Of a DNA stretch of 60,927 bases, positions 26,033 to 49,580 are shown one piece after another (the stretch's first letter is position 1; every line of letters begins with the position of its first letter). The stretch covers positions 1 through 60,927 of the forward strand of contig FR881937.1 in NCBI GenBank assembly GCA_000435615.1, read 5' to 3'. This DNA comes from Firmicutes bacterium CAG:238 (GTDB lineage Bacteria; Bacillota; Clostridia; Peptostreptococcales; Anaerovoracaceae). Below the pieces are notes generated by a model that was given only the letters and a program-made list of their open reading frames with translations, was not told where the DNA came from and made no database searches. The position numbers were made by a program, and so were the translations under genes.

Positions 26033-26079
26033 TTATAGTTATGCAAGAAGTATCAGAAGAAAAGACAGGAGGTTTAATT

Positions 26080-27024: not shown

Positions 27025-27036
27025 GGAGGAAAAGCG

Positions 27037-28764: not shown

Positions 28765-28783
28765 ATCCCGGGAGGAAAGAAAA

Positions 28784-33542: not shown

Positions 33543-34922
33543 TTATGAGCGCCAAAGCTCGATAAGTCCTTTTATGAGCGGCTCAATCCTTTCCAGCGGC
33601 AGGCGGCTGTAGTAAAAAATCAAAGCACTGGTTTCCTGGTCGGTTATTTCGGACAGGGGAACCATTTGAAGACCGAGTGACTTTGCCTCTTCGCAAAGCT
33701 GCTCGGCTTTTTTTCTTGAACGGACTTTTACCGTGAGGTTGATGCCGGAGTGGGTATCTATCGGAGAAGCGACGCCGCCTCCGTGTGCGGAAAATGCCGA
33801 CAGAGCCGCCTGAAGCTTCTGTGAATACAAACTCCGGAGCTTTCGGATTCCCGTGTAGTAATGGCCGTCCTCCATGAAAAATGCAAGCGTAAGCTGTTCC
33901 GCCTTAGAACAGGTCTGTGTATATTCATGCTTGATGGATCGGAATATCTGTGCCATCTTCTCCGGAAGCACCATGTACGAGATTTTTACAGCCGGAAAAA
34001 GGGTAGATGAGAAGGTTCCCAAATACACCACGCAGCTGCGATTGTCAAGGCCTTGGAGCGCAGGAACCGGCTTGCCGAAATAACGCAGCTCACTGTCGTA
34101 ATCATCTTCAATTATAATGCTGTTGTTTTGCGCGGCCCAATCAAGCAGTTCGTATCTCCTGCCTACAGGCATTACAGCACCGGTAGGAAATTGGTTTGAA
34201 GGATTTACATACACTGCGGATTGTATATTCGCAGGAAGTTTTGCAATTTCAATTCCGTCAGAGGCAACCGGGATGTGAGAAATCGTAAAGCCCGCATCAC
34301 GGAACATGCTTTGGACGGGGAGATAACCCGGCTCTTCCAGGCAGACTAAGCGCAGTCCCATTTTTATGAGAATTCTGGAAAGGTGGCTGGTGATCTGCTG
34401 TGTTCCGGCACCGATTACAATCTGTTCAGGACTTGCAGTAACACCGCGCGATGAATACAGATATTTTGAAATTTCGAAGCGCAGAATGGGTTCTCCCTGC
34501 GGGTCACTCTCGAAGAGAAGCTGGTCGGTGTAGTCATTAAAGACTCGGGCTGAGCATTTCTTCCACTTCACGAAGTCAAAACAACTCGGGTCACTTATAT
34601 AGGCGGATGGCTCGAAAGTAAAACCGCTGATTTCCGAAAGCGGTGCAGAGACTTTCGCGTGTGACGGAGAGGGAGAAATTTCCGCAATATAATAGCCGGA
34701 TTTTGGACGGCTGCTGATGTAGCCTTCAACAAGAAGCTGATTATAGGCGAGTTCGGCTGTAGTGATGCTGATGCCAAGGTCCTTCGACAAAGTGCGAAGG
34801 GAAGGAAGCTTTTCGCCGGATTTCATTTCTCCGGTGAGAATGCGTTGCTTAATTATGTCATACAACTGTAGGTATAAAAACTTCTCATTACTGTCATTTT
34901 GATTGATATAAATCGGTTTCAT
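33543..34922 (-). CDS. MocR/PdxR-type GntR regulator with aminotransferase domain
   Basis: wHTH LPSLR.LSKDLGIS..T...AY.QL..EGYI; NQFPTG, IIEDDYDSE, YLGTFS. Confidence 0.92.
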   Translation of the reverse strand: MKPIYINQNDSNEKFLYLQLYDIIKQRILTGEMKSGEKLPSLRTLSKDLGISITTAELAYNQLLVEGYISSRPKSGYYIAEISPSPSHAKVSAPLSEISGFTFEPSAYISDPSCFDFVKWKKCSARVFNDYTDQLLFESDPQGEPILRFEISKYLYSSRGVTASPEQIVIGAGTQQITSHLSRILIKMGLRLVCLEEPGYLPVQSMFRDAGFTISHIPVASDGIEIAKLPANIQSAVYVNPSNQFPTGAVMPVGRRYELLDWAAQNNSIIIEDDYDSELRYFGKPVPALQGLDNRSCVVYLGTFSSTLFPAVKISYMVLPEKMAQIFRSIKHEYTQTCSKAEQLTLAFFMEDGHYYTGIRKLRSLYSQKLQAALSAFSAHGGGVASPIDTHSGINLTVKVRSRKKAEQLCEEAKSLGLQMVPLSEITDQETSALIFYYSRLPLERIEPLIKGLIELWRS

Positions 34923-34964
34923 AATGTATATTTCCTCAAACTGTTCATATAAAAATAATTATTT

Positions 34965-34995
34965 TTGGATATTTTAATAATAACACATTGGATAT
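34965..34995 (+). promoter_or_regulatory. Putative PdxR operator (direct repeat)
   Basis: TTGGATAT at 34965 and 34988 in the divergent intergenic region. Confidence 0.45.
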
Positions 34996-35033
34996 ATAAT
35001 AGCAATATAAGAAGTGACAGAGAGGTGACAGAA

Positions 35034-35594
35034 ATGAACAGAAATGAAAAAACTTATACAATCGTGATGACGGCAATGATGACGTGCCTGGTGCTTCTCA
35101 CAACCTATACTTTCAAAATTCCGACGCCTTTCCAAGGGTATGTTCATTTGGGGGATGCAATGATTTTCCTGAGCGTGCTTGTCGTAGGAAGAAAGAACGG
35201 TGCTGTGGCGGCTGCATTTGGTTCGGCTCTTGCAGATCTCTTAGGCGGTTATGTGGCATTTGCACCATGGACCTTTGTAATCAAGGGACTTATGGCTTTG
35301 GTTATGGGATGGTTCATCGATTTTATGACAAAAAAACAGAGCAAATCTCTGAAAGTCTGCGGGGTACCGCTGATTGAAATCGTGGGTATGGTTATCGCAG
35401 GAGCGGTTATGGTTCTCGGATACGGCGTTGCGGATGCGGTCCTTGCGGGAAACATCATGACGGGAATCCTCAGCATGCCTGCAAACTGCGGACAGTTCGC
35501 AGCGGGAGTGGTAATTGCAAGTGTTCTTGCGGCGGCTCTCTACAAAACCCCGGCAAAGAAGTATTTCACATACAGACTGGATGAAGCAAGATAA
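35034..35594 (+). CDS. ECF transporter S component (probably vitamin B6-type)
   Basis: GYVHLGDA, GSALADL.GGY..APWTFVIKG; divergent from the MocR regulator. Confidence 0.8.
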   Translation: MNRNEKTYTIVMTAMMTCLVLLTTYTFKIPTPFQGYVHLGDAMIFLSVLVVGRKNGAVAAAFGSALADLLGGYVAFAPWTFVIKGLMALVMGWFIDFMTKKQSKSLKVCGVPLIEIVGMVIAGAVMVLGYGVADAVLAGNIMTGILSMPANCGQFAAGVVIASVLAAALYKTPAKKYFTYRLDEAR

Positions 35595-35615
35595 CAAATA
35601 ATAAGGATACACAAC

Positions 35616-35656
35616 AAAATCCGGCGGATTCACAAATCGGAAGCTGCCGGATTTTT
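35616..35656. terminator. Bidirectional terminator
   Basis: AAAATCCGGCGG...CTGCCGGATTTT. Confidence 0.7.
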
Positions 35657-35682
35657 AGTGGAATAAGATTTATTTCGTTCTG

Positions 35683-36213
35683 TTAGTTTTTCTTTAACTT
35701 TCCTTCAACAATCATACGTGCAATTTTTTCGGCACAATATGCAACGGCTGTAGCACAGTGGAAAGTTCCGTTGTGATCCATGTATCCCTGGTCACCTTCC
35801 GGTGTCTTCCAGTCATATACAGCACCCATGTTGTGAATCATTACTTCCGAGCATAAGATTCCGTCGTATTCTTTGCGGAAGTCTTCAACGAGCTCACGAA
35901 TCATTTCGTGACATTTTTCATAATCACCGCCAAGATCGTTAATCGGTCTTCCGCAGCAAAGGCTGATTGCCCATGCAGCAGCGTTTAATGCACCGCAGGT
36001 TCCAAGGAGCGAGCATCCGCATCCGCCTGCAATGCCGAAGCAAGCCTGAAGCATATCTTCCGTAATTCCTAAATCAGGAAAAGCAGTATATAAACCGTTT
36101 AAGCAGCTCTGAATACAGTTGCCGTAATCCGTTTCCGTCTGGAAACCCACATCCATGGCTTTCTTCACGAGAGCTTCTTTTTCTTCATGAGATAATTTCG
36201 TATAATCCTGCAT
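35683..36213 (-). CDS. C-GCAxxG-C-C family putative redox protein
   Basis: NCIQS, GIAGGCG...GTCGALNA, GILCSE, C-terminal Cys. Confidence 0.8.
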   Translation of the reverse strand: MQDYTKLSHEEKEALVKKAMDVGFQTETDYGNCIQSCLNGLYTAFPDLGITEDMLQACFGIAGGCGCSLLGTCGALNAAAWAISLCCGRPINDLGGDYEKCHEMIRELVEDFRKEYDGILCSEVMIHNMGAVYDWKTPEGDQGYMDHNGTFHCATAVAYCAEKIARMIVEGKLKKN

Positions 36214-36440
36214 ATCTATTCGCCTTCTTTCTTTTGCATTTACCGTTTTCGATATCATTCGCCTAAAACGGCGGATTGTAGCTACATTTTAATTTATACA
36301 TACGCAAAAAACAAGCAAATCAAGAAAATAACAAGATAATTAGCAAACGGGTAGATTGTAATCAGGTTTTGGAAATGGTACTATAATCTCAGTTAAACGA
36401 AAAAAGATGCCATACGGGCATTTGAGAGGGAGGAAATAAT

Positions 36441-38141
36441 ATGAAGTTACTGGTTATCGGAGGTTCTGCGGGCGGTGCATCCACTGCGGCCAGAGTACGC
36501 AGATTGAATGAAGAAGCAGAAATTACGATTTTTGAAAAAGGCAGAGATGTATCGTTCTCCAACTGTTCACTCCCGTATTATACAGGCGGAGTTGTAGAGA
36601 GCAGTGAAGATTTGATTATGATGTTCCCGGAAGACTTCAAGGCAAAACACAATATTGATGTTTATACGCAGACAGAGGTTTTGAAGATTAACAGGGCAGA
36701 GAAAACAATTACCGTAAAAGATTTGAAAAACGGAGAAACAAGGAATGAAGCTTATGACAAGCTTGTACTCGCAACCGGGACGGAGCCGGTTATGCCGGGA
36801 AGTATTGAGGGCATTCATTCCCCGCATGTTTTTACAATTCGTAATGTGGTGGATATTGAACGGCTTCAGGCGAAACTTGACGAAGAAAGCACAAAAAACA
36901 TTGCAGTAGTCGGCGGGGGATTTATCGGTGTGGAAGTTGCCGAGAACTTAAGAAAAATCGGAAAAGAAGTTACCCTGATAGAAGGCACGAAGCAAATATT
37001 GGCACCTTACGATTATGATATGGTGCAGATTCTGCACAAAGAACTGGACGACAACGGCATTACACTTCATGTTTCGGCGACGGTAACCGCCATAGAGAGC
37101 AAGCAGGTAAAGGCTGTAAAAGACGGAAAAGAATTTACGGTTGCCGCAGATGCTGTGGTTATGGCAGTCGGTGCAAGACCGAAGACCGAACTTGCAAAAG
37201 ATGCCGGTCTTGAAATCGGAACCACGGGTGGAATTTGGGTTGATCACAACTACCGGACAAGCGATGCGGATATTTACGCAGTGGGAGATGCCATCGAATC
37301 CTATAATATGCTTGCACATGCGCCGGGCAGGATTGCACTTGCAGGCCCTACGCAGAGACAGGCACGTGCGGCGGCTGACCATATTTGCGGAATGTATAAC
37401 ACAAACAAGGGTTATATTGGTTCTTCCTGCATCAAAGTCTTCGGACAGAATGCGGCATGCACGGGACTTAACGAAAGAGAAGCCAAACGCCTTGGATATT
37501 CCTACGATTCTGTTATGATTTTCCCTATGGACAGAGTGGGTCTGATGCCGGGTGCAAACTATATGGTTTTCAAGCTGGTATTTGAGATTCCTACGGGACG
37601 AATTCTCGGCGCACAAGCAATCGGAACAGGCGAGTGCGATAAGCGCGTGGATGTAATTGCGGCCATGATTACAATGGGTGGCAGGCTTGAAGACTTGAAA
37701 GAACTGGAGCTCTGCTATGCACCGCCGTTCTCAACCGCAAAAGATGTTGTAAACTTAGCGGCATTGGTGGCACTTAATGTATTAAACGGACGAATCAAAC
37801 AAGTCCATGTGGACAAAGTAAGAGAACTTGTTGAACAGGGTGCGTATATTATCGATGTCAGAGGAGCCGGTGAACTGAAAACGGGTCACCTTAAGGGGGC
37901 ACATCATATTCCTCTTAATGAGCTCAGAGACAGACTGGATGAAATTCCAAGGGATATTCCGGTATACCTGCACTGCAGATCCAGCCAGCGCTCCTATTAC
38001 GCAACCTGCACTTTGATCGAAAACGGTTTCACGAATGTGTACAATATCAGCGGATCTTTCCTCGGCATCAGTCTTTATGAGTATTTCAACGACAAAACAC
38101 AAGGAAGAGAACCGATTGTGACACAATATAATTTTGAATAA
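36441..38141 (+). CDS. CoA-disulfide/persulfide reductase with C-terminal rhodanese domain
   Basis: GGSAGG, redox Cys SFSNC, GGGFIG, YAPPFS..KD, rhodanese IDVR...HCRSSQRS. Confidence 0.88.
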   Translation: MKLLVIGGSAGGASTAARVRRLNEEAEITIFEKGRDVSFSNCSLPYYTGGVVESSEDLIMMFPEDFKAKHNIDVYTQTEVLKINRAEKTITVKDLKNGETRNEAYDKLVLATGTEPVMPGSIEGIHSPHVFTIRNVVDIERLQAKLDEESTKNIAVVGGGFIGVEVAENLRKIGKEVTLIEGTKQILAPYDYDMVQILHKELDDNGITLHVSATVTAIESKQVKAVKDGKEFTVAADAVVMAVGARPKTELAKDAGLEIGTTGGIWVDHNYRTSDADIYAVGDAIESYNMLAHAPGRIALAGPTQRQARAAADHICGMYNTNKGYIGSSCIKVFGQNAACTGLNEREAKRLGYSYDSVMIFPMDRVGLMPGANYMVFKLVFEIPTGRILGAQAIGTGECDKRVDVIAAMITMGGRLEDLKELELCYAPPFSTAKDVVNLAALVALNVLNGRIKQVHVDKVRELVEQGAYIIDVRGAGELKTGHLKGAHHIPLNELRDRLDEIPRDIPVYLHCRSSQRSYYATCTLIENGFTNVYNISGSFLGISLYEYFNDKTQGREPIVTQYNFE

Positions 38142-38161
38142 CTTATAAATTATGACTTGAG

Positions 38162-38197
38162 CCCCTTGCTGCTTCCGTGCGGCAGGGGGATTGTTTT
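38162..38197 (+). terminator. Rho-independent terminator
   Basis: CCCCTTGCTGC-ttccgt-GCGGCAGGGGG then T-rich tail. Confidence 0.7.
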
Positions 38198-38394
38198 CGA
38201 TTTGTACAGGCTCACAAAGGTGTAAAAAATGTCAAAATAGCAAAAAAGTTAACAAAAATAGCAAAAAAATTAAATACATTTGTTTTTATTTTGTTAAAAT
38301 GACAATAGATATAACAATATTTACATTTTTTAGGGGGATTGTTTTATACGACAATCTTGGTATTATCACTTATTTTATTTAGGAGGTTTTAGTT

Positions 38395-39927
38395 ATGGCA
38401 GAAACCAAAAAGGCTGAACGTCTGCCTAATAAGTTTGAGGCTTGTTTACCGGTTCTCGTGCTGTTAGGCCTGATGGTAGCAAATTCCGTATTAGAGTGGG
38501 GAAATGACCCGCACTTATACGTATTGATGGCAGTTATTACCGTTGTGCTTGTTGCAAAACGCTGCGGCATATGCTATAAGGATATGTTAGCCGCAGGTTT
38601 CGACTCGCTTTTTCAGTCACTTGAAGCAATGTTCATTCTGTTATTCGTAGGATGCTTGGTTGGTACATTTGAATATGCCGGAACAATTCCTGCCCTTGTA
38701 TATTACGGATTGAAGTTATTCACGCCGGCTATTTTCTTACCGGCAGTATGCTTGCTTTGCGCAATCGTAGCGATGGCATTGGGTTCCGCTTATACAGTAA
38801 GTGCAACATTAGGTATTGCGTTCCTGACAATCGGTGCAACCATGGGTGTTAACCCGGCACTCATCTGCGGTGCGGTTCTCTCCGGTGCTTGCACAGGCGA
38901 CAAATTCTCCCCGTTATCCGATACAACAAACCTTGCGTCTGCATCTGCACAGACAGGATTATTTGACCACGTTAAGGCAATGATCGGAACCACATTCCCG
39001 ACATTCCTTATCGGTTTCTTAATCTTCTGCGGAATTTCATTTGCAGGTGAAACAGGTGCTTACGATCCGGAACTCGTAGACGGATTATCCAATGCAATCA
39101 AGGATCACTTCCAGTACATGAGCCCTGTTCTGTTAATCCCTGTACTTGTTATCCTTGCAGTTTCCGTATTACAGATATCTGCAATTCCTGGTATCCTGCT
39201 CGTTGTATTAACAGCCGGTATCTTCATGGTTATCTTCCAGGGTGCAGGCTTCCCTGAATTCATTTCAGCGGCACACTACGGTTACTCCGCAGAAACAGGC
39301 AACGAATTAGCTGACCAGTTACTTAACAGAGGTGGAATGGATTCCATGCTGTGGACCATCAACATGGCATTGATCGCAATCGGTTTCGGCGGCATGTATG
39401 CTAGAGCAGGCTGTGTTGAATCCTTATTAGGAAACCTCATCAAGGATATCAGAACACCGTTCCAGATGGCTGTTGCGGTTATCTGTACCGCAATGTTCAC
39501 AATCCTGACGATGTGCGACCAGTACTTAAGTTTAATCATTCCTGCAACCATGTACAAAGAAAAATTCGACGAACTCGGACTTTCCAGAAACATGTTGTCA
39601 AGATGTATGGAAGACGGCGGAACATTGTTCTCACCACTGGTTCCATGGTCAACTTGCGGTGTATACCACTCCGGCATGTTAGGTGTTCCTACATTATCAT
39701 ATTTACCGTACTGCTTCGTAAACATTTTGAACCCACTGATTTCCATGGGTACGGCAGCTATCGGCGGCAACATCCTGTATGCTGACGGTTCCAAGACCGG
39801 ATTCTTCGGCGGCAAGGTAAAGAAAGGCCACTTCGTTGCGGCGGCTCCGGAAGAAGCACACGAAATCGCTATGAAGGCTCTGGAAGCAAAGAGAGCAAGC
39901 GGCGAATACAAGCAGATTAGTGCTTAA
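38395..39927 (+). CDS. NhaC-family transporter (MleN/amino-acid type)
   Basis: AGTIPAL.YYG, GDKFSPLSDTTNLAS, RGGMDSM, LSRCMEDGGT..SPLVPW. Confidence 0.88.
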   Translation: MAETKKAERLPNKFEACLPVLVLLGLMVANSVLEWGNDPHLYVLMAVITVVLVAKRCGICYKDMLAAGFDSLFQSLEAMFILLFVGCLVGTFEYAGTIPALVYYGLKLFTPAIFLPAVCLLCAIVAMALGSAYTVSATLGIAFLTIGATMGVNPALICGAVLSGACTGDKFSPLSDTTNLASASAQTGLFDHVKAMIGTTFPTFLIGFLIFCGISFAGETGAYDPELVDGLSNAIKDHFQYMSPVLLIPVLVILAVSVLQISAIPGILLVVLTAGIFMVIFQGAGFPEFISAAHYGYSAETGNELADQLLNRGGMDSMLWTINMALIAIGFGGMYARAGCVESLLGNLIKDIRTPFQMAVAVICTAMFTILTMCDQYLSLIIPATMYKEKFDELGLSRNMLSRCMEDGGTLFSPLVPWSTCGVYHSGMLGVPTLSYLPYCFVNILNPLISMGTAAIGGNILYADGSKTGFFGGKVKKGHFVAAAPEEAHEIAMKALEAKRASGEYKQISA

Positions 39928-39970
39928 TTTCTTTTTGCACAGACATATTTGTAAGCAAAGGGGAGGCAGA

Positions 39971-40501
39971 ATGGTTTTTAAAGGAATTAATATGCGCGAA
40001 AGAAGCAAGCGAAAACGCATACTCATGTTTTTCGGCTGCCTTGGCATCACAGCTTTGGAAATTTGGCAGAAAAATTATTTTTTTGCCGTAGTGGCATTGA
40101 TTTTAGCATTCTTTTGTATAGGATACAACAAGGAACACGTGATTTCGGAAGAGGGCGTGGATATTCGATATGTTTTCTTGGGAATACCATACAACTATCG
40201 CTGGACCTGGGATCAGATTACGGCAATGCGTCCCGACTATAAAAAGGCCAAACCGAACATCATGATGGAAATCGCAAAGGATGTGTCCGTAAGAGCCTTT
40301 GTTTTTACCCCTGAAGATGCGGTTAAAGTTATGGAGTTCGCTCAAAGAATGAATCCGGAGGCGTATGTCGACAGTCGTACGGAAGCAGAAAGAGAAGCCT
40401 ACAAAGAAGAGCGCGACAGAATGATTGCCGAAAAACAAATGCAGATTCGCCGCCAGAAACAAGCCGAGAAAGCAAGAAAGAAAAAACACAAAAACAGATA
40501 A
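39971..40501 (+). CDS. Hypothetical membrane protein
   Basis: RBS GGGAGG; TM hairpin, beta-rich region and charged tail. Confidence 0.65.
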   Translation: MVFKGINMRERSKRKRILMFFGCLGITALEIWQKNYFFAVVALILAFFCIGYNKEHVISEEGVDIRYVFLGIPYNYRWTWDQITAMRPDYKKAKPNIMMEIAKDVSVRAFVFTPEDAVKVMEFAQRMNPEAYVDSRTEAEREAYKEERDRMIAEKQMQIRRQKQAEKARKKKHKNR

Positions 40502-40511
40502 ACCCAAAAAG

Positions 40512-40560
40512 AAAGCCGGTCATCCGCATGATTAATCAGCATTCGGAAACAACCGGCTTT
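40512..40560. terminator. Bidirectional terminator
   Basis: AAAGCCGGT...ACCGGCTTT between convergent genes. Confidence 0.65.
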
Positions 40561-40574
40561 TGTTGTACGTTTTG

Positions 40575-41099
40575 TTATTTTTCAAGTATGCCGCCTACGA
40601 GGAGGTAATATTCCGGTATACTGGTACCGTCAGACCACAGAATATCGAATCCGAAGCAGTCTTTAACCATCTTTACGGCAAGCATCCCGAGGGATTCAAG
40701 TGCGTAGCGCATCTTATCCGGATGAACGCAAGGGTGACCACTAAGGCGTGCACACTTTTTGCACAATGTGCATTCTTGTGCAGCAAGGGCTTTGCTGCCG
40801 GGGCAGACTTCCTCCATGGCGAGCATTTCTTCATCGTGGATTTTTTTCTCTGCAAAAAGACGGTCTTGCGCTTCCGCTACCGTTGAGGCGCCTTCGTTTG
40901 AAATGCGGTCGACGATGAAATGAAAGCGTGAAAACTGCAGCCAATAGTCTTTGGGATCGAAATTGAAGTCCGGGCACGCCCATGTTTCGCCAAAGCCCGG
41001 GCATTGCGAGCATTTGCGATAGGTTTCGTCGTAGTTGTAATATTTGTCAAGCATTTCGTCTACATCAAGATATGTTTCAAAGCGTTCTTTATAATACAT
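40575..41099 (-). CDS. DUF2284-family Cys-rich metal-binding protein
   Basis: CSQCPGFG..WACP, CTLCKKC......CVHPDKMRYALESLG; RBS AGGAGG. Confidence 0.8.
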   Translation of the reverse strand: MYYKERFETYLDVDEMLDKYYNYDETYRKCSQCPGFGETWACPDFNFDPKDYWLQFSRFHFIVDRISNEGASTVAEAQDRLFAEKKIHDEEMLAMEEVCPGSKALAAQECTLCKKCARLSGHPCVHPDKMRYALESLGMLAVKMVKDCFGFDILWSDGTSIPEYYLLVGGILEK

Positions 41100-41109
41100 T
41101 GGATGCCTC

Positions 41110-41319
41110 CTATTCTTTCGCATTGAAAAGTCTGAATTTTTTCCAAAATACGAGGCCCAAAGCCACCGCAGCGGCAGCAAACCGTATGGAAATGATGTAG
41201 AAGGTTGGGCAGTCCTCAACATACTTTGTAAGGGGGTAACTGAGTCCCCATAGAATTGCTGCAATAACAAGTCCGGTAAATGCTACGCCTTCAGACGGCC
41301 GATGTTTTTTACTTGTCAT
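41110..41319 (-). pseudogene. Truncated EamA/DMT transporter (first two TMs only)
   Basis: AILWGLSYPLTK and SIRFAAAA are EamA N-terminal motifs; only 69 aa, stop abuts the next gene's RBS. Confidence 0.7.
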
Positions 41320-43189
41320 TTTTTGAATCTCCTTTTAGTGCTATCAGTGCCAGCTGCACACCGACACCCTTCATCGAAAAGTTTATATGAAAATTGGTTC
41401 GTACATCCTCTTGATAAACATCAAGCTGAGGCGAAGTCGGAATCAGATCGTGCAAAACGCTCAATGTATCCGAGCCGTCAGAGAAGTTTAAAGAGGAAAA
41501 ATATGTGAAAATATCTGATGAACGGTTCATCGTATATTTCATTACGGAATAAATGCCCGGCGGCAGATTCAGGTTGAAGCTGAAGTCTATCTCGTCCTTG
41601 AATTCATTTAACACCGTTCGCACCTGGTGCAGCGACGAGTCCTTTTTGCAAAGGCTTTGGATGCTGTCGTTGTAATTATAGACAATTACAGCAAATGCTG
41701 CAGGCACCGTATCATTGATGCGAATGACACAATAGTGCTTACCCCAGCAGATAATGTCGCCATGCACAAAGGAGGCTGCCTGATATACATAGAAAGATGA
41801 CTTTTTGATTGCGTTTGATGTTACAAGCGACGGAAGACCCTTCAGAAGAGTTCCATCCTGCTCTCTGTCTCGCAGCCGAAGTGTCAGCCACGGGTCGGAT
41901 GAGCGCAAAAGCTGGCTCAACACATAAATCGGAGCTGCAATTGTATCGTTTCCGTAGGATATAAACGGCTGTGCATTGATTGTTACTGCTTGCTTCAGCA
42001 CAACCGAAAACCCGGCGGCAGTGAGCATCATGCGCAGTCGATCGACCTCCGTGGAAGAGTCCGTGGGATAAAACAAAAGGGTTACCCTGGACGGATGCAG
42101 ACAGTCCAGTATATGAAAAAGATTAAATTTCATCTCCCGAAAATCTTCCAGGGTGATTTGAATGTTTAATTTATAGTCAATGAAGGTAATGGGTTTGCCG
42201 CTTCTGTCGACATTTATCTCCAGCTTCAGGCTGTTCACCACGGAAGAACTGTTCTTCTGTGAGTTCAAAGAAGACAAAGTAGACTTAATCAAATATGTGG
42301 CTTTGTTGGCAGAAATCGGGGTAATGATTTCGGGACGCAGTTCGCTCTTGACCATAGGCTTGAAATGTGCACGGTGCTCTTCCGGCGTCCGCTTAAACCA
42401 TTTATAAAAATATTTTTCGTAATACGCAGTGGTTGAAAATCCGACATCTCTGGCAATCTGGCTGATTTTCTTGTTTGTGTCAAGCAGCTGAATTTCCGAC
42501 CATTCCACGCGTGCAAAGCACAGAAATTCACGGAAATTCATGCCGGTGCAGTCTTTGATGATATGCGAAATGTAAAATTCGCTGAGGTGTTCCATCGACG
42601 CCAAATCTTCCAGCGTGATTTTTTCGGCATAATACTGATAAATATATGTAATAATTCGGCTGATGCGCTCGGTTGTGGTTTGGTCACCGTTTTCAAAATT
42701 GATGACAACATCGTTTTCAAACGCAAATAGATTGAAGTACTTGTCCAAATACTTGATGATGTCAACGATGAGATAAGTACACTCGCTTTTGTAGTTGAAA
42801 CTCTTAATCTCGTATGCGAGCAGGATCTGCAGAAGCTTTTCGCGCAGATTGTCGTGCCGCTTCGTCGTCGGCTTGTTGGAATAGGTACGATAGCAGGCTT
42901 TGCTGAGCGACGGAAAATACTGCGAAAAATAATGCGTGCTGATCTGAATCAGTGCAACGATATTTTCTTTGCCGGTTGAGGTCAGGCTGTGTACTTCATG
43001 ACCTGCATTGGTAAAAATATCGCCTTCCTTCAATGTGTAATGGCAGTACCCGTTTTTCAGTGTCACTTCTCCTTTCAGGACATAGACAAACTCAATATCC
43101 TGATGGTAGTGCAGCGGATACTCTTCTATTGACGCAATCGTAATATTGATCGGGAAATCATCCTGATAAGTAATTTTTTCAAATAACAT
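41309..43189 (-). CDS. Large AraC-family regulator (cupin + HTH + degenerate GH39-like C-terminal domain)
   Basis: PLHYHQDIEF cupin; HLSEFYISH...ISQIARDVGFS HTH; LVTSNAIKKSSFYVY resembles GH39 C-termini. Confidence 0.85.
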   Translation of the reverse strand: MLFEKITYQDDFPINITIASIEEYPLHYHQDIEFVYVLKGEVTLKNGYCHYTLKEGDIFTNAGHEVHSLTSTGKENIVALIQISTHYFSQYFPSLSKACYRTYSNKPTTKRHDNLREKLLQILLAYEIKSFNYKSECTYLIVDIIKYLDKYFNLFAFENDVVINFENGDQTTTERISRIITYIYQYYAEKITLEDLASMEHLSEFYISHIIKDCTGMNFREFLCFARVEWSEIQLLDTNKKISQIARDVGFSTTAYYEKYFYKWFKRTPEEHRAHFKPMVKSELRPEIITPISANKATYLIKSTLSSLNSQKNSSSVVNSLKLEINVDRSGKPITFIDYKLNIQITLEDFREMKFNLFHILDCLHPSRVTLLFYPTDSSTEVDRLRMMLTAAGFSVVLKQAVTINAQPFISYGNDTIAAPIYVLSQLLRSSDPWLTLRLRDREQDGTLLKGLPSLVTSNAIKKSSFYVYQAASFVHGDIICWGKHYCVIRINDTVPAAFAVIVYNYNDSIQSLCKKDSSLHQVRTVLNEFKDEIDFSFNLNLPPGIYSVMKYTMNRSSDIFTYFSSLNFSDGSDTLSVLHDLIPTSPQLDVYQEDVRTNFHINFSMKGVGVQLALIALKGDSKNDK

Positions 43190-43438
43190 GCTGATACCTA
43201 CCTTGCAATATTCACAACAATATCATCCCATAGAAAAATTATATAATGAAACCCACCCCAAAAGTAATAAGAATAATTAGATTTTATAGCAAAATAATTA
43301 TATTTTCAGACAATGTAATAGTTGTAATTAACTTTGCGGGACATTAAAATATGGTGTAAGAGTAAAAGTTCAATATGGGACAGCCTGCGGGAATGCAGGA
43401 CGAATTCAAAATACAAAGGAAAATCAGGAGGTATAATC

Positions 43439-44188
43439 ATGAGTAATGCAAGAGTATGTGTAATCACGGGAGCATCCGGCGGTATCGGTACGGAAGTTGT
43501 AAAAAAATATTACAATAACGGCTATGATGTAGTCATGCTCGACATTAACGAAGACACACTTAAGAAATTGATGGAGAAGGAAAACCTGGATCCTACAAGA
43601 GTTATCTATAAGGTACTAGATGTTTCCAGTGAACAGCAGGTAATCGATACAATCGCTGCAATCAAAGAAGAAAAAGGTAAGATTGACGTTCTGGTAAATA
43701 CTGCGGGAATCATAGGAAAATATGATGAAACGATTGATTACAGCTTTGAAATATTCAGAAAAATTTATGAAATCAATGTATTTGGTACTTTCCTTATGAT
43801 GAAGTACACCCTCCCTATCATGCTTGAACAGGGAAAAGGTGCAATCGTAAACTTCGGTTCCTGCTCCGGCATGACGGGATACACTTCCGAAATCGGATAC
43901 GGCTCCAGCAAATGGGCGGTTATCGGCATGACGAAGAATGTTGCAAATGAATATGCACGCCGCGGCATTCGAGCAAATTCCATTTCTCCGGGATGGGTTA
44001 ATACGGATATGCTCAAACAGTCACTTGAGGAATATAAGGAAACAGGTGACACTGTGAACTTCGGATGCATCGGTCGTCCGGGTGAACCAAGCGAAATGGC
44101 AGATGCTGTTTATTATCTCAGCTCTGACGAAGCGTCCTTCGTAAACGGAATCAACCTTCTCGTAGACGGCGGTAAGATGCTCGACTAA
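43439..44188 (+). CDS. Short-chain dehydrogenase/reductase (probably NAD-dependent)
   Basis: TGASGGIG, LDIN, NTAG, YGSSK, PGWVNT, LLVDGG. Confidence 0.92.
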   Translation: MSNARVCVITGASGGIGTEVVKKYYNNGYDVVMLDINEDTLKKLMEKENLDPTRVIYKVLDVSSEQQVIDTIAAIKEEKGKIDVLVNTAGIIGKYDETIDYSFEIFRKIYEINVFGTFLMMKYTLPIMLEQGKGAIVNFGSCSGMTGYTSEIGYGSSKWAVIGMTKNVANEYARRGIRANSISPGWVNTDMLKQSLEEYKETGDTVNFGCIGRPGEPSEMADAVYYLSSDEASFVNGINLLVDGGKMLD

Positions 44189-44219
44189 TTCAATGTTTAA
44201 ATAATAGGGGGAAAACGAA

Positions 44220-46595
44220 ATGTTAAATGAAAGACTGCAAAAAATGAGAACGAAACTGTGGAACTCCAGACCTTGCATCACAGCGGAGAGACTTGTTTTG
44301 GCAACAGAAGCATATCAGAAATTTGCGGGGGACGCAATTCCGATCTTCCGCGCGGAAGTTGTAAAATACATCATGGAGCACATGACGACTTTGATCATGG
44401 AAGATGAACTCATCGTCGGCACTCCAACCAATAAATACAGAGGCGCAAACCTTCATCCGGAATTCCAATCCAGCTCCTGGTATATCAGCGATATCGATGA
44501 TTTTCCGGTAAGAACGAAGGATCCGTATGACATCTCGCCGGAAGACAGAGAACTGATTCTCAAAACACTCCCGTATTGGGAAGGCAAGTCCATGGAAGAT
44601 ATGTCCAAGACTGCGCTTCCGCCGCATACGGAAGAATGCATCCGGGACGATATTATTACGGTCGGTCTCAGAAACGGTGTTTCCGGTGAAACAACCTGCG
44701 ACCACGAAAAAATCCTTACGGTAGGTCTTAAGGGCTATATGGATGAATGCCGCGAGAACATTGCAAAAACTCCGGGAACAAGCAAGGAAGACCAGGAAAA
44801 GATTAATTACTGGAAGGCATGCATCATCCAGTGCGAAGGTCTGATTATCTATGCACACAGAATGGCAGAAGAAGCAGAAAGACAGGCTGCTTGCTGCACA
44901 GACGAAAAGCGTAAGAAAGAACTCCTTACAATTGCCGAAAACTGCAGAGTTGTTCCGGAACTTCCGCCGCAGAGTTTCCAGCAGGCATTACAGTCTATCT
45001 GGTTCGTACATGTATATTTCCACATCGAAGTATGTACAACCGCTAACGGTTTCGGAAGATTCGACCAGTACATGTGGCCTTATTACAAGAAAGATGTAAT
45101 CGACGAAAAGAACATCACGCAGGATGAGGCACTTGAAATGCTCGAATGCTTCTACCTTAAGGCATGCGAGGTATTTGAAGTAAGAGATAAATGGTATGCG
45201 ACATCCTTCGCAGGCTACCCGATGTGGGAAATCCTCATCGTCGGCGGACAGACCCGTGACGGCAAAGACGCTACAAACGAGTTATCCTACCTCTGCCTGG
45301 AAGCTGCAAACCAGCTCAAAACAACGCAGCCGGTAATGGCAGTCAGAGTTTGGGATGGAACTCCGGAAGAACTTGTACGCAAGGGCTGCAAGATGATTCA
45401 GGAAGGACAGGCAAATCCGGGCTTCTTTAATGACTATGCAGCTATGCAGATGACGCAGGGCAAGGGCTGTACGATTGAAGAGGCAAGAGACTGGACAATC
45501 GTTGGCTGCATCCAGCCGGGACCGGGAGGCGGAACGACAGACGGTTCCCCTGACGCAGGTTATGTCAACATGGGCAAAATGCTCGAATTCGTTCTCCACA
45601 ACGGTGTTGATCCGTCAACAGGTAAGCTTATGGGACTTCAGACAGGAGACCCGAGAGACTTCAAGAACATCGAAGAGTTTAAAGATGCGTTAAAGAAACA
45701 GATCCTTCATCACTACAAACTTGTAACCGAAGGCTATAAGATTATGCAGAGCATGCATATGCTCAGATTCCCGGTTATCTTCGCATCCATGGTTACGAAG
45801 GGCTGTGTGGAAAGCGGCAGATCCGTTCAGGAGGGCGGTGCAAAGTACAGCACTGCGGGCCTTTACATCACAGGTGCAGCCAATATGGCAGACTCAATTG
45901 AAGCAATTCAGAAGTGCGTATTCGAAGATAAGGACATCACAATGGATGAACTCATCAAAGCACTTGATAATAATTTTGAAGGCGAAGAACGTATGCGCCA
46001 GCTTCTTTTGAACAAACCTGAAAAATTCGGAAACGACAAAGCTCATGTAGACGGAATTTACAGAGAAATGATGCACTTCATCGCAGACAATGTTCAGACA
46101 TGGCCGGACGCAAGAGGCGGCTGGTTCTCGTTCAATGTTCACTCACAGACCGTAAACGTATCACACGGTGCGGTATGCGGTGCAACGCCTGACGGAAGAC
46201 TTGCAGGAGAACCTTTCTGCGATAACGCTTCACCAATGATGGGACGCGATAAGAGTGGTCCTACCGCAACGGTTAAGTCCGTAGCATCCATGGGACAGGA
46301 AGCATTCCACGACGGTGCATTGTTCAACCTTCGTTTCGACCCGAAGGGCGTTGAAGGCGAAAAAGGTCTGGAAAGCATTGAAGGCGTAATCAGAACCTAT
46401 TTCGACCACGGCGGCGAACACATTCAGATCAACGTTGTTGATACAGAAACACTCAAGGATGCACAGAAACATCCTGAAAACTATAAAGGGCTGATGGTTC
46501 GTGTAGCAGGCTACATGGCTTACTTCACCGAGCTCGACAAGAGTGCTCAGGATACCATTATCTACAGAACCGCACACTTCGAAAAGGCTGAATAG
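44220..46595 (+). CDS. Glycyl radical enzyme of unknown substrate
   Basis: 791 aa PFL2-like; GRFDQY, Cys loop GCIQP (45504-45518), ATPDGR, HIQINV, glycyl loop LMVRVAGY. Confidence 0.93.
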   Translation: MLNERLQKMRTKLWNSRPCITAERLVLATEAYQKFAGDAIPIFRAEVVKYIMEHMTTLIMEDELIVGTPTNKYRGANLHPEFQSSSWYISDIDDFPVRTKDPYDISPEDRELILKTLPYWEGKSMEDMSKTALPPHTEECIRDDIITVGLRNGVSGETTCDHEKILTVGLKGYMDECRENIAKTPGTSKEDQEKINYWKACIIQCEGLIIYAHRMAEEAERQAACCTDEKRKKELLTIAENCRVVPELPPQSFQQALQSIWFVHVYFHIEVCTTANGFGRFDQYMWPYYKKDVIDEKNITQDEALEMLECFYLKACEVFEVRDKWYATSFAGYPMWEILIVGGQTRDGKDATNELSYLCLEAANQLKTTQPVMAVRVWDGTPEELVRKGCKMIQEGQANPGFFNDYAAMQMTQGKGCTIEEARDWTIVGCIQPGPGGGTTDGSPDAGYVNMGKMLEFVLHNGVDPSTGKLMGLQTGDPRDFKNIEEFKDALKKQILHHYKLVTEGYKIMQSMHMLRFPVIFASMVTKGCVESGRSVQEGGAKYSTAGLYITGAANMADSIEAIQKCVFEDKDITMDELIKALDNNFEGEERMRQLLLNKPEKFGNDKAHVDGIYREMMHFIADNVQTWPDARGGWFSFNVHSQTVNVSHGAVCGATPDGRLAGEPFCDNASPMMGRDKSGPTATVKSVASMGQEAFHDGALFNLRFDPKGVEGEKGLESIEGVIRTYFDHGGEHIQINVVDTETLKDAQKHPENYKGLMVRVAGYMAYFTELDKSAQDTIIYRTAHFEKAE

Positions 46596-46605
46596 GGAGA
46601 CCGTG

Positions 46606-47544
46606 ATGGAAAATAACACACGCAAGGCACTCGTGGGAGCGATACAGAAGTTCAGCACGGAGGACGGTCCGGGCATCAGAGCGACTGTGTTCCTCAAGGG
46701 CTGCCCGCTAAGCTGCAGATGGTGTCATAACCCCGAGCTTATCAGCTTCAAACAACAAATTATCGAAATGCCGAACAGCTGCATTAAATGCGGGTACTGC
46801 CTTACGCACTGCCCGCAGAATGCAATCTTTGTCGGTGAAGAAGATCAAAGAATACATGTGGACCGCGCGCTTTGCGATTGTTGTCTTGCTTGTACGAAAT
46901 TCTGCTATGCCGAAGCACTGAAGGCCGTAGCAAAGGAAATGACCGCAGAAGAGATTATGGCAGAAGTTCTGCAGGACAAAGGCTTTTATGAGCATACGGG
47001 CGGCGGAATGACTATCAGCGGAGGCGAAATGCTTTCGCAGGCGGATTTTGCCGAAGAACTTATAGAACTGGCACGCAAAAACGGTGTGCATGTGTGTCTT
47101 GACACATCGGGTTTCGGAGACGGCGACCGACTCATGAAACTTGCGGAATATGAAAACATCACCAACATTCTGTATGACATGAAGGCAATCGATAATGATG
47201 TTCATAAGGAATATGTGGGACAGAGCAACGAAGTGATTCTCGAAAATTTGAAAAGACTCGCGAACAATCCCGTTACGAATTCAAAAATCCAAATGAGAAT
47301 GCCTCTTATGCACGATGTAAATGACAAATGGGATATTATAGAGAAGACCGCAGAATTTTACAAAGAAAACGGAATCACGCATTTAACGCTCCTGCCTTAT
47401 CATAATTTGGGTTTTGCAAAGAAGAGAAACCTCGGACAGAAGCCTGTGGATTTCGTAACACCTTCCGATGATTACGTAGATAAGATAAAAAAATTTTTTG
47501 AGGAAGAAGCGGGAATGCTGGTAGAGGTTTTGGGAAAAACATAA
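46606..47544 (+). CDS. Glycyl radical activating enzyme (radical SAM with ferredoxin insert)
   Basis: DGPGIR..VFLKGCPLSCRWCHNPE, two extra CxxCxxCxxxC, SGGE, DTSG, LLPYH. Confidence 0.95.
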   Translation: MENNTRKALVGAIQKFSTEDGPGIRATVFLKGCPLSCRWCHNPELISFKQQIIEMPNSCIKCGYCLTHCPQNAIFVGEEDQRIHVDRALCDCCLACTKFCYAEALKAVAKEMTAEEIMAEVLQDKGFYEHTGGGMTISGGEMLSQADFAEELIELARKNGVHVCLDTSGFGDGDRLMKLAEYENITNILYDMKAIDNDVHKEYVGQSNEVILENLKRLANNPVTNSKIQMRMPLMHDVNDKWDIIEKTAEFYKENGITHLTLLPYHNLGFAKKRNLGQKPVDFVTPSDDYVDKIKKFFEEEAGMLVEVLGKT

Positions 47545-47557
47545 TAAATGCTTTTAG

Positions 47558-47620
47558 AAAACAATGAAGCTCGGCGACATTGGACATCAACCGGTCCTTT
47601 GCACCGAGCTTTGTTGTTTT
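47558..47620. terminator. Bidirectional terminator
   Basis: AAAACAATGAAGCTCGG...CCGAGCTTTGTTGTTTT. Confidence 0.7.
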
Positions 47621-48767
47621 ATATGAGTTGATATTTCACCAGGAAGCTTGCCGCATGGATAATGTCAGGCAGCAGCTTTACTGCGGCACGGGAAAGGAAA
47701 ATGCTCTGCGTGCCTTTTTCCTTGAGGTTGTATGCGATGAGGAACGTGAGGGCACGCGGATTTGCGACATTTCTGATATTTGTCAGAAGCTCCTTCGGAG
47801 ATTGTAAGGAGAAAACATCGCCGTACTTATCCAAAGCTTCCTTCGCCTCGTGATTGAATGTACGGGCGGCATCGGAAATTTTTTCGAGGAATATTTCGTT
47901 GGTGTACAGCACAAGCGGATCAAGCTCGAAAATCTTTGCACAGGCATCGGCCTCTTTTAATATTGTCTTAGGGAATGTGCCTTTTGCAAAAGAAAAATAA
48001 GTACCGTCGATAAGACCGAGAGCTTTCATCGCGTCAAGGTATCCAAGACGCAGGATACGCTTGGAATTAGCCTTGTCGAAGATCAGGATGCTGCCAAGAT
48101 CCCACTTCGGTTCTATATATACAAGATTCGGTGCCGTTTCGAGGGTTTCGTGTCTTACGACGCCCATGCCCTTAAGATTGACGGCTATGACATGAGTTGC
48201 GCCTTTTTTGACCGCCATCCCAACGGGGATTTCATCTGCATATCCGCCGTCGATATAATCCACACCATCTATCTCGCAGCTGTGTATTGCCGGGAAAGCC
48301 GAGGCACTTGCGATAATAAAATCAATCATTTTGCCGCTTGGGATATCTTCCTTATAAAGATAATGTGCATCAAAGGTCGGAAGCGAGACAACCGGAATCC
48401 CGTATACCATAGGCGAGTTTCGTACCACGTCTTCATCAATATACTTGGTGAGAAGTCCTTTCAACCCGGATGTTCCCGCACCGTGATTGAATACAATTTC
48501 GCGGGCATATTCGATCGGCTGGCTTCCTTCCGGCACATCAAAGACCATGTGCGTTTCGATCTCACGCCAAAGCTGTGCGGTAAGATCGACATTTCCCTGC
48601 ACAACCATTGCGGCGTTGATGGCTCCGACTGAGCAGCCTGTTACAATATCAATTTCAATCCCAAGTTCCGTGAGAGCCTGCCACACGCCCGCTTCATATG
48701 CGCCGCGGGAACCGCCGCCACCCAAAACAAGAGCAACCTTTTTTTGTTTTTTTGATCTCATAGCCAT
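47619..48767 (-). CDS. Patatin-like phospholipase
   Basis: GGGGSRG, GCSVG (catalytic Ser), ASASAFP, YIDGG. Confidence 0.9.
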   Translation of the reverse strand: MAMRSKKQKKVALVLGGGGSRGAYEAGVWQALTELGIEIDIVTGCSVGAINAAMVVQGNVDLTAQLWREIETHMVFDVPEGSQPIEYAREIVFNHGAGTSGLKGLLTKYIDEDVVRNSPMVYGIPVVSLPTFDAHYLYKEDIPSGKMIDFIIASASAFPAIHSCEIDGVDYIDGGYADEIPVGMAVKKGATHVIAVNLKGMGVVRHETLETAPNLVYIEPKWDLGSILIFDKANSKRILRLGYLDAMKALGLIDGTYFSFAKGTFPKTILKEADACAKIFELDPLVLYTNEIFLEKISDAARTFNHEAKEALDKYGDVFSLQSPKELLTNIRNVANPRALTFLIAYNLKEKGTQSIFLSRAAVKLLPDIIHAASFLVKYQLI

Positions 48768-48851
48768 AATCTCCTTCACTTTTCACTACCAAAATTTTAT
48801 CATAAATGGTATACTGTAATCAAGAAAAACCAAAAAATCGGAGGCATACGA

Positions 48852-49580
48852 ATGGATAAGCGATTAAAAGAGATAATAGATAACAGTAGTAATGTGGTCT
48901 TCTTCGGCGGGGCGGGAGTTTCAACCGAAAGCAATATACCCGACTTTCGTTCCGAAAAGGGCTTGTACAACGCACAGCAGCAATACGGAAGAAGTCCCGA
49001 AGAAATGCTTTCGCACAGCTTCTTCATGCAGCAGCCCGATACTTTCTTTGACTATTACAAAAAGAATTTGATTTACAGAGACGCACAGCCAAACAATGCA
49101 CACAAGGCACTTGCGTATCTTGAAAAAGAAGGCAGACTCAAGGCTGTAATCACACAAAACATTGACGGCCTTCATCAAAAAGCCGGAAGCAAAAAAGTAT
49201 ACGAACTTCATGGCTCGGTTCTTCGCAATCATTGTATGGATTGCGGGGAATTCTATGACACGGATTTCATCATGGATGAGGCAAACTGCAGAGGAAATAT
49301 TCCGATCTGCCCGAAATGCGGCGGCATCATCAAACCGGACGTCGTTCTTTACGAAGAAGCGCTGGACGAGGCCTGCATGATGGGAGCAATCAATGCGATT
49401 GAGAAGGCAGATACCATGATTATAGGAGGAACTTCGCTGGTTGTTTATCCGGCGGCGGGTTTGATTCGCTATTTTTGTGGTAAGAAATTGGTACTGATAA
49501 ACAAACAGCCTACCCCGTATGACGGCAAGGCTGACTTGGTAATTAATGACGCAATCGGGAAAGTTATGGAGGTAGAATAA
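48852..49580 (+). CDS. cobB: Sir2-family NAD-dependent protein deacylase
   Basis: GAGVSTESNIPDFRS, TQNIDGLH, HGS, CxxC..CxxC, GTSL.VYPA. Confidence 0.92.
   Translation: MDKRLKEIIDNSSNVVFFGGAGVSTESNIPDFRSEKGLYNAQQQYGRSPEEMLSHSFFMQQPDTFFDYYKKNLIYRDAQPNNAHKALAYLEKEGRLKAVITQNIDGLHQKAGSKKVYELHGSVLRNHCMDCGEFYDTDFIMDEANCRGNIPICPKCGGIIKPDVVLYEEALDEACMMGAINAIEKADTMIIGGTSLVVYPAAGLIRYFCGKKLVLINKQPTPYDGKADLVINDAIGKVMEVE

Follow-up and report, generated by a model that had tools for sequence, protein, structure and literature searches.

The window analysed here (positions 1-60,927 of contig FR881937.1 of Firmicutes bacterium CAG:238, assembly GCA_000435615.1) carries, at 43439-47544 on the plus strand, three closely spaced genes in the order short-chain dehydrogenase/reductase (SDR), glycyl radical enzyme (GRE) and GRE activase. 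These genes form one operon under a divergent AraC-type sensor, and the locus is laid out as follows:

41309..43189, minus strand: AraC-family regulator of 626 aa, divergent from the operon (Pfam Cupin_2, AraC_binding and HTH_18)
43439..44188, plus strand: classical SDR of 249 aa, first gene of the operon (Pfam adh_short, E 3.5e-53)
44220..46595, plus strand: PFL-like GRE of 791 aa without internal stops, with Cys430-Ile-Gln432 and Gly764
46606..47544, plus strand: radical-SAM GRE-activating enzyme of 312 aa with a two-cluster ferredoxin insert
47558..47620, no strand assigned: predicted terminator hairpin, U-rich at its 3′ end, flanked by the activase and patatin genes, which converge on it

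A first-pass annotation of this DNA had proposed an intact GRE with an RVAGY glycyl loop, a ferredoxin-insert activase and an SDR, co-oriented and closed by a terminator, and each of these elements was found in place. The SDR start (ATG 43439) is preceded at 8 nt by the ribosome-binding site AGGAGG, and the activase start (ATG 46606) follows GGGAG, 10 nt past the GRE stop. The hairpin begins 14 bases past the activase stop, folds at -32.6 kcal/mol (z -6.87; 0/200 shuffles equally stable) and is likely a bidirectional intrinsic terminator, which went unseen by a simple terminator scan because of its long loop. The AraC regulator joins an N-terminal cupin sensor to HTH_18 and a long C-terminal domain matching no family. 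Promoter-like hexamers were not enriched across 43100-47750, including the AraC-SDR spacer (7 vs. 7.5 expected from shuffles), and scanning 34000-49000 against Rfam revealed no riboswitch or other RNA family.

By its predicted features, the GRE is an intact member of the PFL-like superfamily with a glycyl site, a thiyl site and a cognate radical-SAM activase. Pfam assigned PF02901 (PFL-like, E 1.8e-192, residues 4-650) and PF01228 (Gly_radical, E 1.1e-32), the glycyl motif RVxG[FWY] appears as RVAGY at residues 761-765 with Gly764 as the radical site, and Cys430 aligns with Cys433 of glycerol dehydratase (GD) and with the cysteines of HplG and CutC, in a column that is invariant in alignment A1. 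The activase exceeded the TIGR02494 cut-off (296 bits vs. 174) and carries CX3CX2C at 33-40 and CX2CX2CX3C at 59-69 and 90-100. The Cys loop reads GCIQP (from residue 429), and the further segments that had been singled out as unlike those of known enzymes, i.e., VSGETTCD (154), IEVCTTANG (269), AGYPMWEIL (331), DGSPDAG (441) and VHSQT (640), were all found in the GRE.

The protein missed the cut-off of every NCBIfam equivalog model tested, with scores vs. cut-offs of 603/1100 for HypD (NF043068), 539/1050 for CutC (TIGR04394), 546/1000 for HpsG, 513/1000 for HpfG, 467/1100 for IAD, 340/1150 for HPAD, 541/1109 for PflD and 133/994 for PFL. Against the PFL2/glycerol dehydratase subfamily model (TIGR01774) it scored 669.2 bits, just under the cut-off of 678.2. 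A characterised GRE of high identity was looked for, and the closest solved structures were GD (1r8w), propanediol dehydratase (PD, 5i2a), HplG (7vua), a 'glycyl radical protein' (9rco) and CutC (E 1e-177 to 1e-162); the best of these (GD, PD and HplG) are only ~40% identical and all carry Cys-x-Glu (C-x-E) vs. C-I-Q here. A full scan of 1.84 billion cluster representatives placed the nearest 50%-identity clusters at 54, 44 and 41% identity, and the ESM Atlas returned generic GRE clusters only. No paper on this group of GREs was found in literature searches, which left subscription journals largely uncovered, and sections 4.3, 5.4, 5.6, 5.7 and 7 of the June 2026 review of the GRE superfamily describe no enzyme of such kind. 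Taken with the tree and the distribution given below, the GRE thus belongs to a widespread, uncharacterised, monophyletic clade of PFL-like GREs.

The feature that most clearly sets this clade apart is its Cys loop. The GRE 1,2-eliminases and isomerases (GD, PD, HypD, CutC, IslA, HplG and YbiW/PflD) share C-x-E, and the June 2026 review, in the parts of it that treat these enzymes, holds CXE to be kept in all eliminases and isomerases, with the Glu hydrogen-bonded to the substrate. The window GRE has C430-I-Q432 instead, and GC[IV]QP recurred in 120/120 close homologues (83-99% identity). Since these 120 and all 102/102 distinct full-length clade sequences carry the Gln, a sequencing error can be set aside. 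The clade set was drawn from 132 loci, which gave 123 full-length GRE matches (partial ones dropped) and 106 distinct sequences, with the following residues at the pocket columns:

Clade (n = 102, 53-100% identical): Glu157, Trp336, Cys430-x-Gln432, Asp445, Tyr448 and Gln643 in all
Outgroups L124 (51%) and L128 (43%): C-x-E, His157, His274 and Thr445
Outgroups L125 (44%) and L127 (43%): C-x-E, Ala157, Tyr274 and Val or Thr at 445

Thr274 was present in all readable clade sequences but one (L081_765, with His); one further sequence was masked there. The pocket signature of the window GRE accordingly reads Glu157, Thr274, Trp336, Asp445, Tyr448, His641 and Gln643. In known structures, the counterparts of column 157 are GD His164, HypD His160 and, at the same position or beside it, CutC Asp216. 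Those of columns 274 and 445 are HypD Asp278 and GD Asp447, and the C-x-E Glu occupies column 432. The pocket roles assigned to these four columns follow in part sections 5.6-5.7 of the June 2026 review.

To place this signature among GREs at large, the pocket columns were surveyed in 142 aligned cluster representatives of at least 700 aa (8 shorter ones were dropped), 141 of which have the Cys. Among these 141, column 432 holds Glu in 106 and Gln in 6, and among the cluster representatives column 157 (the GD His164 column) holds His in 101 and Glu in 3; Gln432 and Glu157 occur together in P0126 only, which represents the 54% sister cluster. The first-pass view of GCIQP as non-canonical therefore holds insofar as the loop breaks the C-x-E rule, but the loop is not unprecedented, since PhdB and 6/141 cluster representatives also have Gln. 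The accompanying remark that arylacetate decarboxylases have C-x-Q loops proved right for PhdB (Cys482-x-Gln484, according to parts of PMC7079210), but not beyond PhdB.

In a FastTree phylogeny (SH-like supports only), the 19 sampled clade members were monophyletic with a support of 1.0 and nested in a 0.999-supported group with P0127, P0128, P0130 and C-x-E sequences, i.e., within the eliminase/isomerase branch. P0130 is the representative of the HplG cluster (1372 bits to 7vua; 39% identical to the window GRE), and this HplG-like representative as well as L124 and L128 carry His157/His274/Glu432. The clade descends from C-x-E eliminase/isomerase stock, and its pocket appears to have switched in a coordinated manner, with two carboxylates (Glu157 and Asp445) appearing together with the Gln on the Cys loop. 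Within shared loci, the GRE is far better conserved than its neighbours (median identity 83%; activase 63%, SDR 62%, AraC 49%) and is under unusually strong constraint. Outside these fixed columns, positions 639-641 vary by subgroup (NVH, SNL, GID or TLM), as does position 337 (Glu, Gln or Ala), and substrates may therefore differ between subgroups.

HplG, the trans-4-hydroxy-D-proline C-N-cleaving GRE isomerase (7VUA), is the nearest characterised enzyme in the tree and shares Trp336, Tyr448 and Gln643 with the clade. The enzyme known to handle the product in HplG loci is a thiolase, not a reductase. According to section 5.7 of the June 2026 review, HplG acts on an amino acid. At 39% identity over the full length it nevertheless differs from the clade at four pocket columns, with His157(-His158), His274, the C-x-E Glu and Asn445 vs. 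Glu157, Thr274, Gln432 and Asp445. Among solved structures, GD (1R8W) and PD (5I2A) score best (E 2e-177 and 4e-174), over alignments spanning the whole length, and share the Asp at column 445 with the clade, whereas GD has His164, His281, Tyr339, Glu435 and Tyr640 where the window GRE has Glu157, Thr274, Trp336, Gln432 and His641. In GD and PD operons a dehydratase and its activase are joined by an NADH-dependent product reductase, a logic that the window operon appears to share; we know of no reason to expect amino-acid transporters beside diol dehydratases.

That the GRE is simply an orthologue of GD, PD, HplG, HypD or CutC with a tolerated Glu-to-Gln exchange, or an inactive relic of one, has in its favour a similarity to GD, PD and HplG that extends over the whole protein (E 1e-170 to 1e-177) and a TIGR01774 score of 669 that comes close to 678. 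We nonetheless consider it very improbable, as the identity is only ~40%, the four pocket positions differ together and are conserved in 102 distinct sequences, and the same exchange kills HypD and CutC (parts of PMC7079210). A relic, moreover, sits badly with a very strong purifying constraint (median identity of 83% across genera) and with two paralogues in the source genome.

CutC (~35% identical to the window GRE) has in common with it Thr at 274, an aromatic residue at 336 and Tyr at 448, and shows an acidic residue after Gly in the beta-1 loop (GGGDT vs. GET here). The shared positions belong to the CutC pocket in which a cationic nitrogen is bound. CutC is usually linked to a microcompartment, whereas the bacterial microcompartment (BMC) genes of the source genome lie on another contig. 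It also keeps the essential Cys-loop Glu491 (June 2026 review, section 5.6.2), and its E491Q variant is dead (parts of PMC7079210).

PhdB, a phenylacetate decarboxylase with Cys482-x-Gln484, is the only characterised GRE with Cys-x-Gln, a motif it has in common with the clade (C430-I-Q432). Its Gln is essential, with Q484E, Q484A and Q484L all inactive, and parts of PMC7079210 give the authors' view that this Gln is no acid/base residue. By analogy, the invariant Gln432 of the clade could hydrogen-bond a substrate carboxylate, with hydrogen abstraction beside it, no acid/base step on the Cys loop, and decarboxylation or another C-C cleavage as the outcome. Such chemistry seems improbable to us, since the clade is nested among eliminases/isomerases, with HplG as nearest characterised enzyme, and does not group with the decarboxylase models, which score lower (IAD 467/1100, HPAD 340/1150). 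The predicted pocket is polar and acidic, not aromatic-hydrophobic. None of the 6 C-x-Q cluster representatives has PhdB numbering. The other essential PhdB residues are His327, Trp495 and Tyr691, of which Trp495 (Cys+13) corresponds, by residue numbering only, to Ser443 here, PhdB having been compared by description only. In the sections of the June 2026 review named above, PhdB is described with neither a reductase partner nor an amino-acid transporter; a reductase is not known to be needed for the products of arylacetate decarboxylases, whereas here it is the most conserved partner after the activase and AraC.

This last point emerged from the gene neighbourhood. Open reading frames (ORFs) were clustered from 80 loci plus the window (81 sources), and neighbours within 6 kb of the GRE were counted in the 49 loci with at least 2.5 kb upstream and at least 3.5 kb downstream of it (32 shorter ones were dropped). 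The counts were as follows:

Activase: 45/49
AraC regulator: 42/49
SDR: 25/49
Aldo/keto reductase (AKR), non-homologous and occupying the SDR slot: 13/49
SDR or AKR: 38/49
NhaC, APC amino-acid permease or EamA transporter: 28/49
CoA-disulfide reductase (CoADR)-rhodanese: 9/49

Clade GREs thus keep company with a reductase of the NAD(P)H type and with transporters of amino-acid type. The co-occurrence of SDR and AraC that had been anticipated across homologues bears up, with the qualification that an AKR takes the SDR slot in part of the loci, and so does the proposal of an uncharacterised GRE class tied to an SDR, given scores below all equivalog cut-offs and ~40% identity to solved GREs. Likewise as first reported, a scan of 54 selected window ORFs (non-overlapping, each at least 100 aa) gave no match to families of BMC shell proteins, pyrroline-5-carboxylate (P5C) reductase, phosphotransferase systems or small Fe-S subunits. 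The transporter genes, the recurrent CoADR-rhodanese neighbour and a second GRE paralogue had gone without mention in that annotation.

The make-up of the neighbourhood varied by subgroup. In the 70-72% subgroup (Anaerovorax, Hominibacterium and Lentihominibacter) it consists of GRE, activase, APC, EamA, AraC and AKR. Upstream of its GRE, L035 has a P5C-reductase homologue, and L022 holds a D-2-hydroxyacid dehydrogenase. In L085, of the 62-63% subgroup, GRE and activase are followed by a reductase resembling ketol-acid reductoisomerase (KARI) and by a molybdopterin oxidoreductase of 926 aa, and the other strand encodes a 4Fe-4S protein (Pfam assignments); ORFs matching this KARI-like region in L088 and L113, of the same subgroup, are known by size and position only. 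The downstream context of the L085 type differs from that of the main family. SDR genes are likewise found next to the GREs of three C-x-E outgroups (L124, L127 and L128) and of two sister loci (L081 and L082), which argues for continuity of carbonyl-forming chemistry. In L127, GRE, activase, SDR and a BCCT (betaine/carnitine/choline) transporter share one strand, and this GRE, with its C-x-E loop, is another uncharacterised enzyme, probably acting on a quaternary amine.

As for the reductase itself, the window SDR shows the motifs TGxxxGxG, NTAG and YxxxK; it also has Asp35, which indicates NAD(H) as the cofactor that it probably uses. It reached no NCBIfam equivalog cut-off, and searches of the PDB with the SDR and with one AKR returned generic reductases only. 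Its placement as first gene of the operon would suit an alternative in which the SDR or AKR reduces an imported keto-amine or keto-acid to a vicinal amino-alcohol or hydroxy compound, from which the GRE then eliminates an amine or other leaving group, as sulfoacetaldehyde reductase acts ahead of isethionate sulfite-lyase. The top SDR and AKR family matches (sugar or keto-acid reductases, all below cut-off) and the aminotransferases in L044, L022 and L128 fit this order of events, as does the sharing of one slot by non-homologous reductases, which we take to hold for sulfoacetaldehyde reductases as well (cf. parts of PMC6616044). Most loci, however, are without an enzyme that makes the keto precursor, and the P5C-reductase and KARI homologues in some loci rather suit an imine or carbonyl product. 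In characterised eliminase systems, moreover, the reductase often follows the GRE, as 1,3-propanediol dehydrogenase does glycerol dehydratase and P5C reductase does HypD. On balance we regard a reductase acting first as unlikely.

Upstream of the operon, beyond the AraC gene, the window holds further genes that recur beside clade GREs elsewhere:

35683..36258, minus strand: C_GCAxxG_C_C putative redox protein (PF09719), divergent from the CoADR-rhodanese gene
36441..38141, plus strand: CoA-disulfide-reductase-like flavoprotein with a C-terminal rhodanese domain (Pfam Pyr_redox_2 and Rhodanese)
38395..39927, plus strand: NhaC-family transporter of 510 aa (TIGR00931, 373.5 bits vs. a cut-off of 370)
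39920..40501, plus strand: bPH_7 protein (Pfam), homologue cluster in 12/81 sources
40575..41270, minus strand: DUF2284 metal-binding protein (Pfam), homologue cluster in 11/81 sources

The NhaC-family transporter, which scored 336 bits with the ArcD arginine/ornithine antiporter model (below cut-off) and has homologues near the GRE in 15/81 sources, is a candidate substrate importer, its link to the GRE being inferred. The CoADR-like flavoprotein reached 451 bits with TIGR03385, below the cut-off of 579, and L042, L044, L049, L054, L057 and L076 have a GCAxxG homologue next to the GRE or the CoADR gene.

These redox neighbours raise the prospect of a sulfur substrate, i.e., of a GRE that cleaves the C-S or C-N bond of an amino-thiol or thioether (e.g., cysteamine or a cysteine derivative), while the CoADR-rhodanese and GCAxxG proteins would reduce a disulfide precursor or deal with the persulfides formed. 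No strong base would be needed for a thiol on the radical carbon, which would account for the Gln. The CoADR-rhodanese gene stands beside the GRE in several arrangements, lying within the operon in L042 and L049 (GRE, activase, M20 peptidase, CoADR, GCAxxG, SDR) and following the order SDR, GCAxxG, CoADR, AraC, GRE in L054, and in the window the CoADR and GCAxxG genes are found 5-8 kb upstream. Yet 40/49 full-flank loci are without a CoADR gene, no sulfur-specific enzyme or transporter is otherwise conserved, and the flavoprotein could serve a general redox or protection function. Known C-S-cleaving GREs, in addition, keep C-x-E and anchor the sulfonate by Arg/Gln (June 2026 review, section 5.6.3). 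A sulfur substrate hence appears quite improbable.

The pathway logic proposed for the clade is also that of HypD and P5C reductase, in which, according to section 5.6.1 of the June 2026 review, the GRE makes an imine/carbonyl from a hydroxylated amino acid and the adjacent NAD(P)H reductase provides the electron sink. A P5C-reductase homologue is indeed found upstream of a clade GRE in L035, although HypD itself has His160, Asp278 and Glu436, and its partner is P5C reductase vs. SDR or AKR in the clade. The clade, nested as it is among C-x-E enzymes, may keep eliminase/isomerase chemistry with a relocated base.

The reading that we favour, with a probability of roughly 45%, is that the clade GRE would act on a cationic substrate resembling an amino acid, by radical elimination or ring-opening, with residues away from the Cys loop serving as acid/base. 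The carbonyl or imine so formed would be reduced by the partner reductase. The activase would install the radical on Gly764, giving rise to a thiyl radical on Cys430 that would abstract a hydrogen from this substrate, held in place by the carboxylates of Glu157 and Asp445 together with Trp336/Tyr448. Glu157 and/or Asp445 would carry out the acid/base steps done in relatives by the Cys-loop Glu, with Gln432 merely hydrogen-bonding. The substrate radical would then undergo 1,2-elimination or ring-opening with C-N or C-O cleavage to a carbonyl, or to a cyclic imine in equilibrium with a carbonyl, and the SDR would reduce this product with NADH as an electron sink, a task that elsewhere would fall to the AKR or possibly to a P5C-reductase or KARI homologue. 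An amine-type substrate is suggested because APC, NhaC and EamA transporters recur, because a BCCT transporter lies beside the GRE of L127, and because the nearest characterised relative uses hydroxyproline; our leading guesses are hydroxylated basic amino acids (e.g., 5-hydroxylysine) or beta-hydroxy-amino acids.

Several points weigh against this favoured reading. Changing Glu to Gln at the Cys-loop position abolishes the activity of HypD and CutC (parts of PMC7079210), and eliminase chemistry here therefore needs a compensating base, which is proposed from alignment alone; moreover, Asp445 is also found in GD and PD, which keep the Glu. Position 641 is His, Leu, Asp or Met depending on the subgroup, so that one clade-wide substrate is not assured. 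On the side of the neighbours, both SDR and AKR are missing within 6 kb of the GRE in 11/49 full-flank loci, and in the 'GID' subgroup (74-76%) the loci checked have a transporter and neither SDR nor AKR. The reductase could also work in the other direction, making the GRE substrate instead of consuming the product. Finally, the transporter families are broad, and the CoADR-rhodanese and GCAxxG neighbours go unexplained by the scheme.

A more specific version of the favoured reading would make the clade the second kind of C-N-cleaving glycyl radical lyase after CutC. Independently of B12, it would release ammonia or an amine as a radical lyase, or open a ring as an isomerase, acting on a hydroxylated basic amino acid (5-hydroxylysine being the lead) or an amino-alcohol acid. 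Asp445 or Glu157 would be the relocated catalytic carboxylate, and an amino-carbonyl or cyclic-imine product would be reduced as a fermentative electron sink. In this full detail the proposal is speculative and should be regarded as unlikely.

The 2.1-Mb source assembly encodes four glycyl-radical proteins, i.e., PFL (C113), NrdD (C65), the window GRE and a paralogue on contig C112. The latter (C112:2-7376) is 88% identical to the window GRE, differs from it among the listed pocket residues only by N276C and T439A, and comes with an activase of its own, an APC amino-acid permease truncated at the contig edge and a divergently transcribed AraC gene whose product is 53% identical to one AraC from the loci set. 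A tblastn search of the source genome (E 1e-20) found no AKR. All PF00936 hits for BMC shell proteins fell on contig C125, away from both GRE copies, and no BMC shell genes were found beside the window GRE among the ORFs scanned. At C125:70896-80014, EutB (the large subunit of the B12-dependent ethanolamine ammonia-lyase) is encoded directly upstream of six BMC shell-domain hits, an arrangement that resembles a canonical eut microcompartment locus and has no link to any GRE. Plain ethanolamine was considered as GRE substrate as well, and this idea is weakened by the EutB gene that the source organism already carries alongside its BMC shell genes.

Relatives of the GRE were found in 279 species genomes among those scanned, with human, ruminant, pig and chicken gut sources, often in at least 2 copies per genome, and cultured carriers include Emergencia timonensis, Hornefia butyriciproducens, Anaerovorax odorimutans and Aminicella lysinilytica. 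Among 121 sampled genomes of the same family, 16 had a homologue of at least 56% identity (17 when counting a 261-residue fragment). Gene transfer was considered for three contigs labelled Bacteroides stercoris, Bacteroidaceae and Alistipes communis (L004, L005 and L013), which carry a 95%-identical GRE together with the flanks of the window (Sir2, isochorismatase and thiolase), and a Succinivibrio label is attached to L091, which has a 72%-identical clade GRE. These four taxon labels are more likely binning errors than gene transfer.

Some loci showed further arrangements. L021 holds two clade GREs (86% and 74% to the window GRE) 2.2 kb apart, with a CitMHS transporter and a methyltransferase between them and no activase in the 13.8-kb locus. 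In L046 and L051, genes for a corrinoid-binding protein and a non-Pyl MttB-family methyltransferase lie 3′ of the activase on the same strand (directly after it in L046, with one ORF between in L051), and L026, L034, L047 and L048 have the corrinoid protein and/or MttB further downstream after other genes, two of them on the opposite strand. These neighbours hint at a link to methylated-amine metabolism in some Anaerovoracaceae.

Elsewhere in the window, two paralogous DDAH/arginine-deiminase-like (guanidino-modifying) genes flank a sigma-54 activator at 23223-30487, with an M28 peptidase and an NhaC-family transporter 3′ of them. This may be a separate unit for the catabolism of a guanidino compound or arginine derivative; DDAH-like genes also occur near the GRE in L022, L052 and L073. 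A complete Rnf-type operon (RnfC, D, G, E, A and B domains) lies at 14724-19783, and 5′ of it, at 6573-14563, a peptide ABC transporter and two M20 peptidases are encoded. Rnf operon, peptide transporter and peptidases are together consistent with an amino-acid or peptide fermenter.

GREs are behind much of the demanding anaerobic chemistry of gut microbes, including the formation of trimethylamine, H2S precursors, p-cresol and skatole. Reviews, in the parts that bear on this, count many abundant gut GREs as still without assigned function. The present analysis establishes, at the level of predicted proteins and gene order, an uncharacterised GRE clade that is strongly conserved, has a re-wired active site of non-canonical make-up and keeps to a conserved context of reductase, transporter and AraC genes, and the first-pass claim of new reaction chemistry is to be tempered to this extent. 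All characterised eliminases and isomerases obey the C-x-E rule, and the clade breaks it. Identifying its substrate would add a metabolic pathway of the gut, and would show either that the catalytic base is movable in this class of enzymes or that there is a new type of radical reaction. Should the clade indeed be a C-N-cleaving lyase, gut Clostridia would gain a new route for a host- or diet-derived amino compound, with catalysis proceeding without the Cys-loop glutamate that was hitherto thought obligatory.

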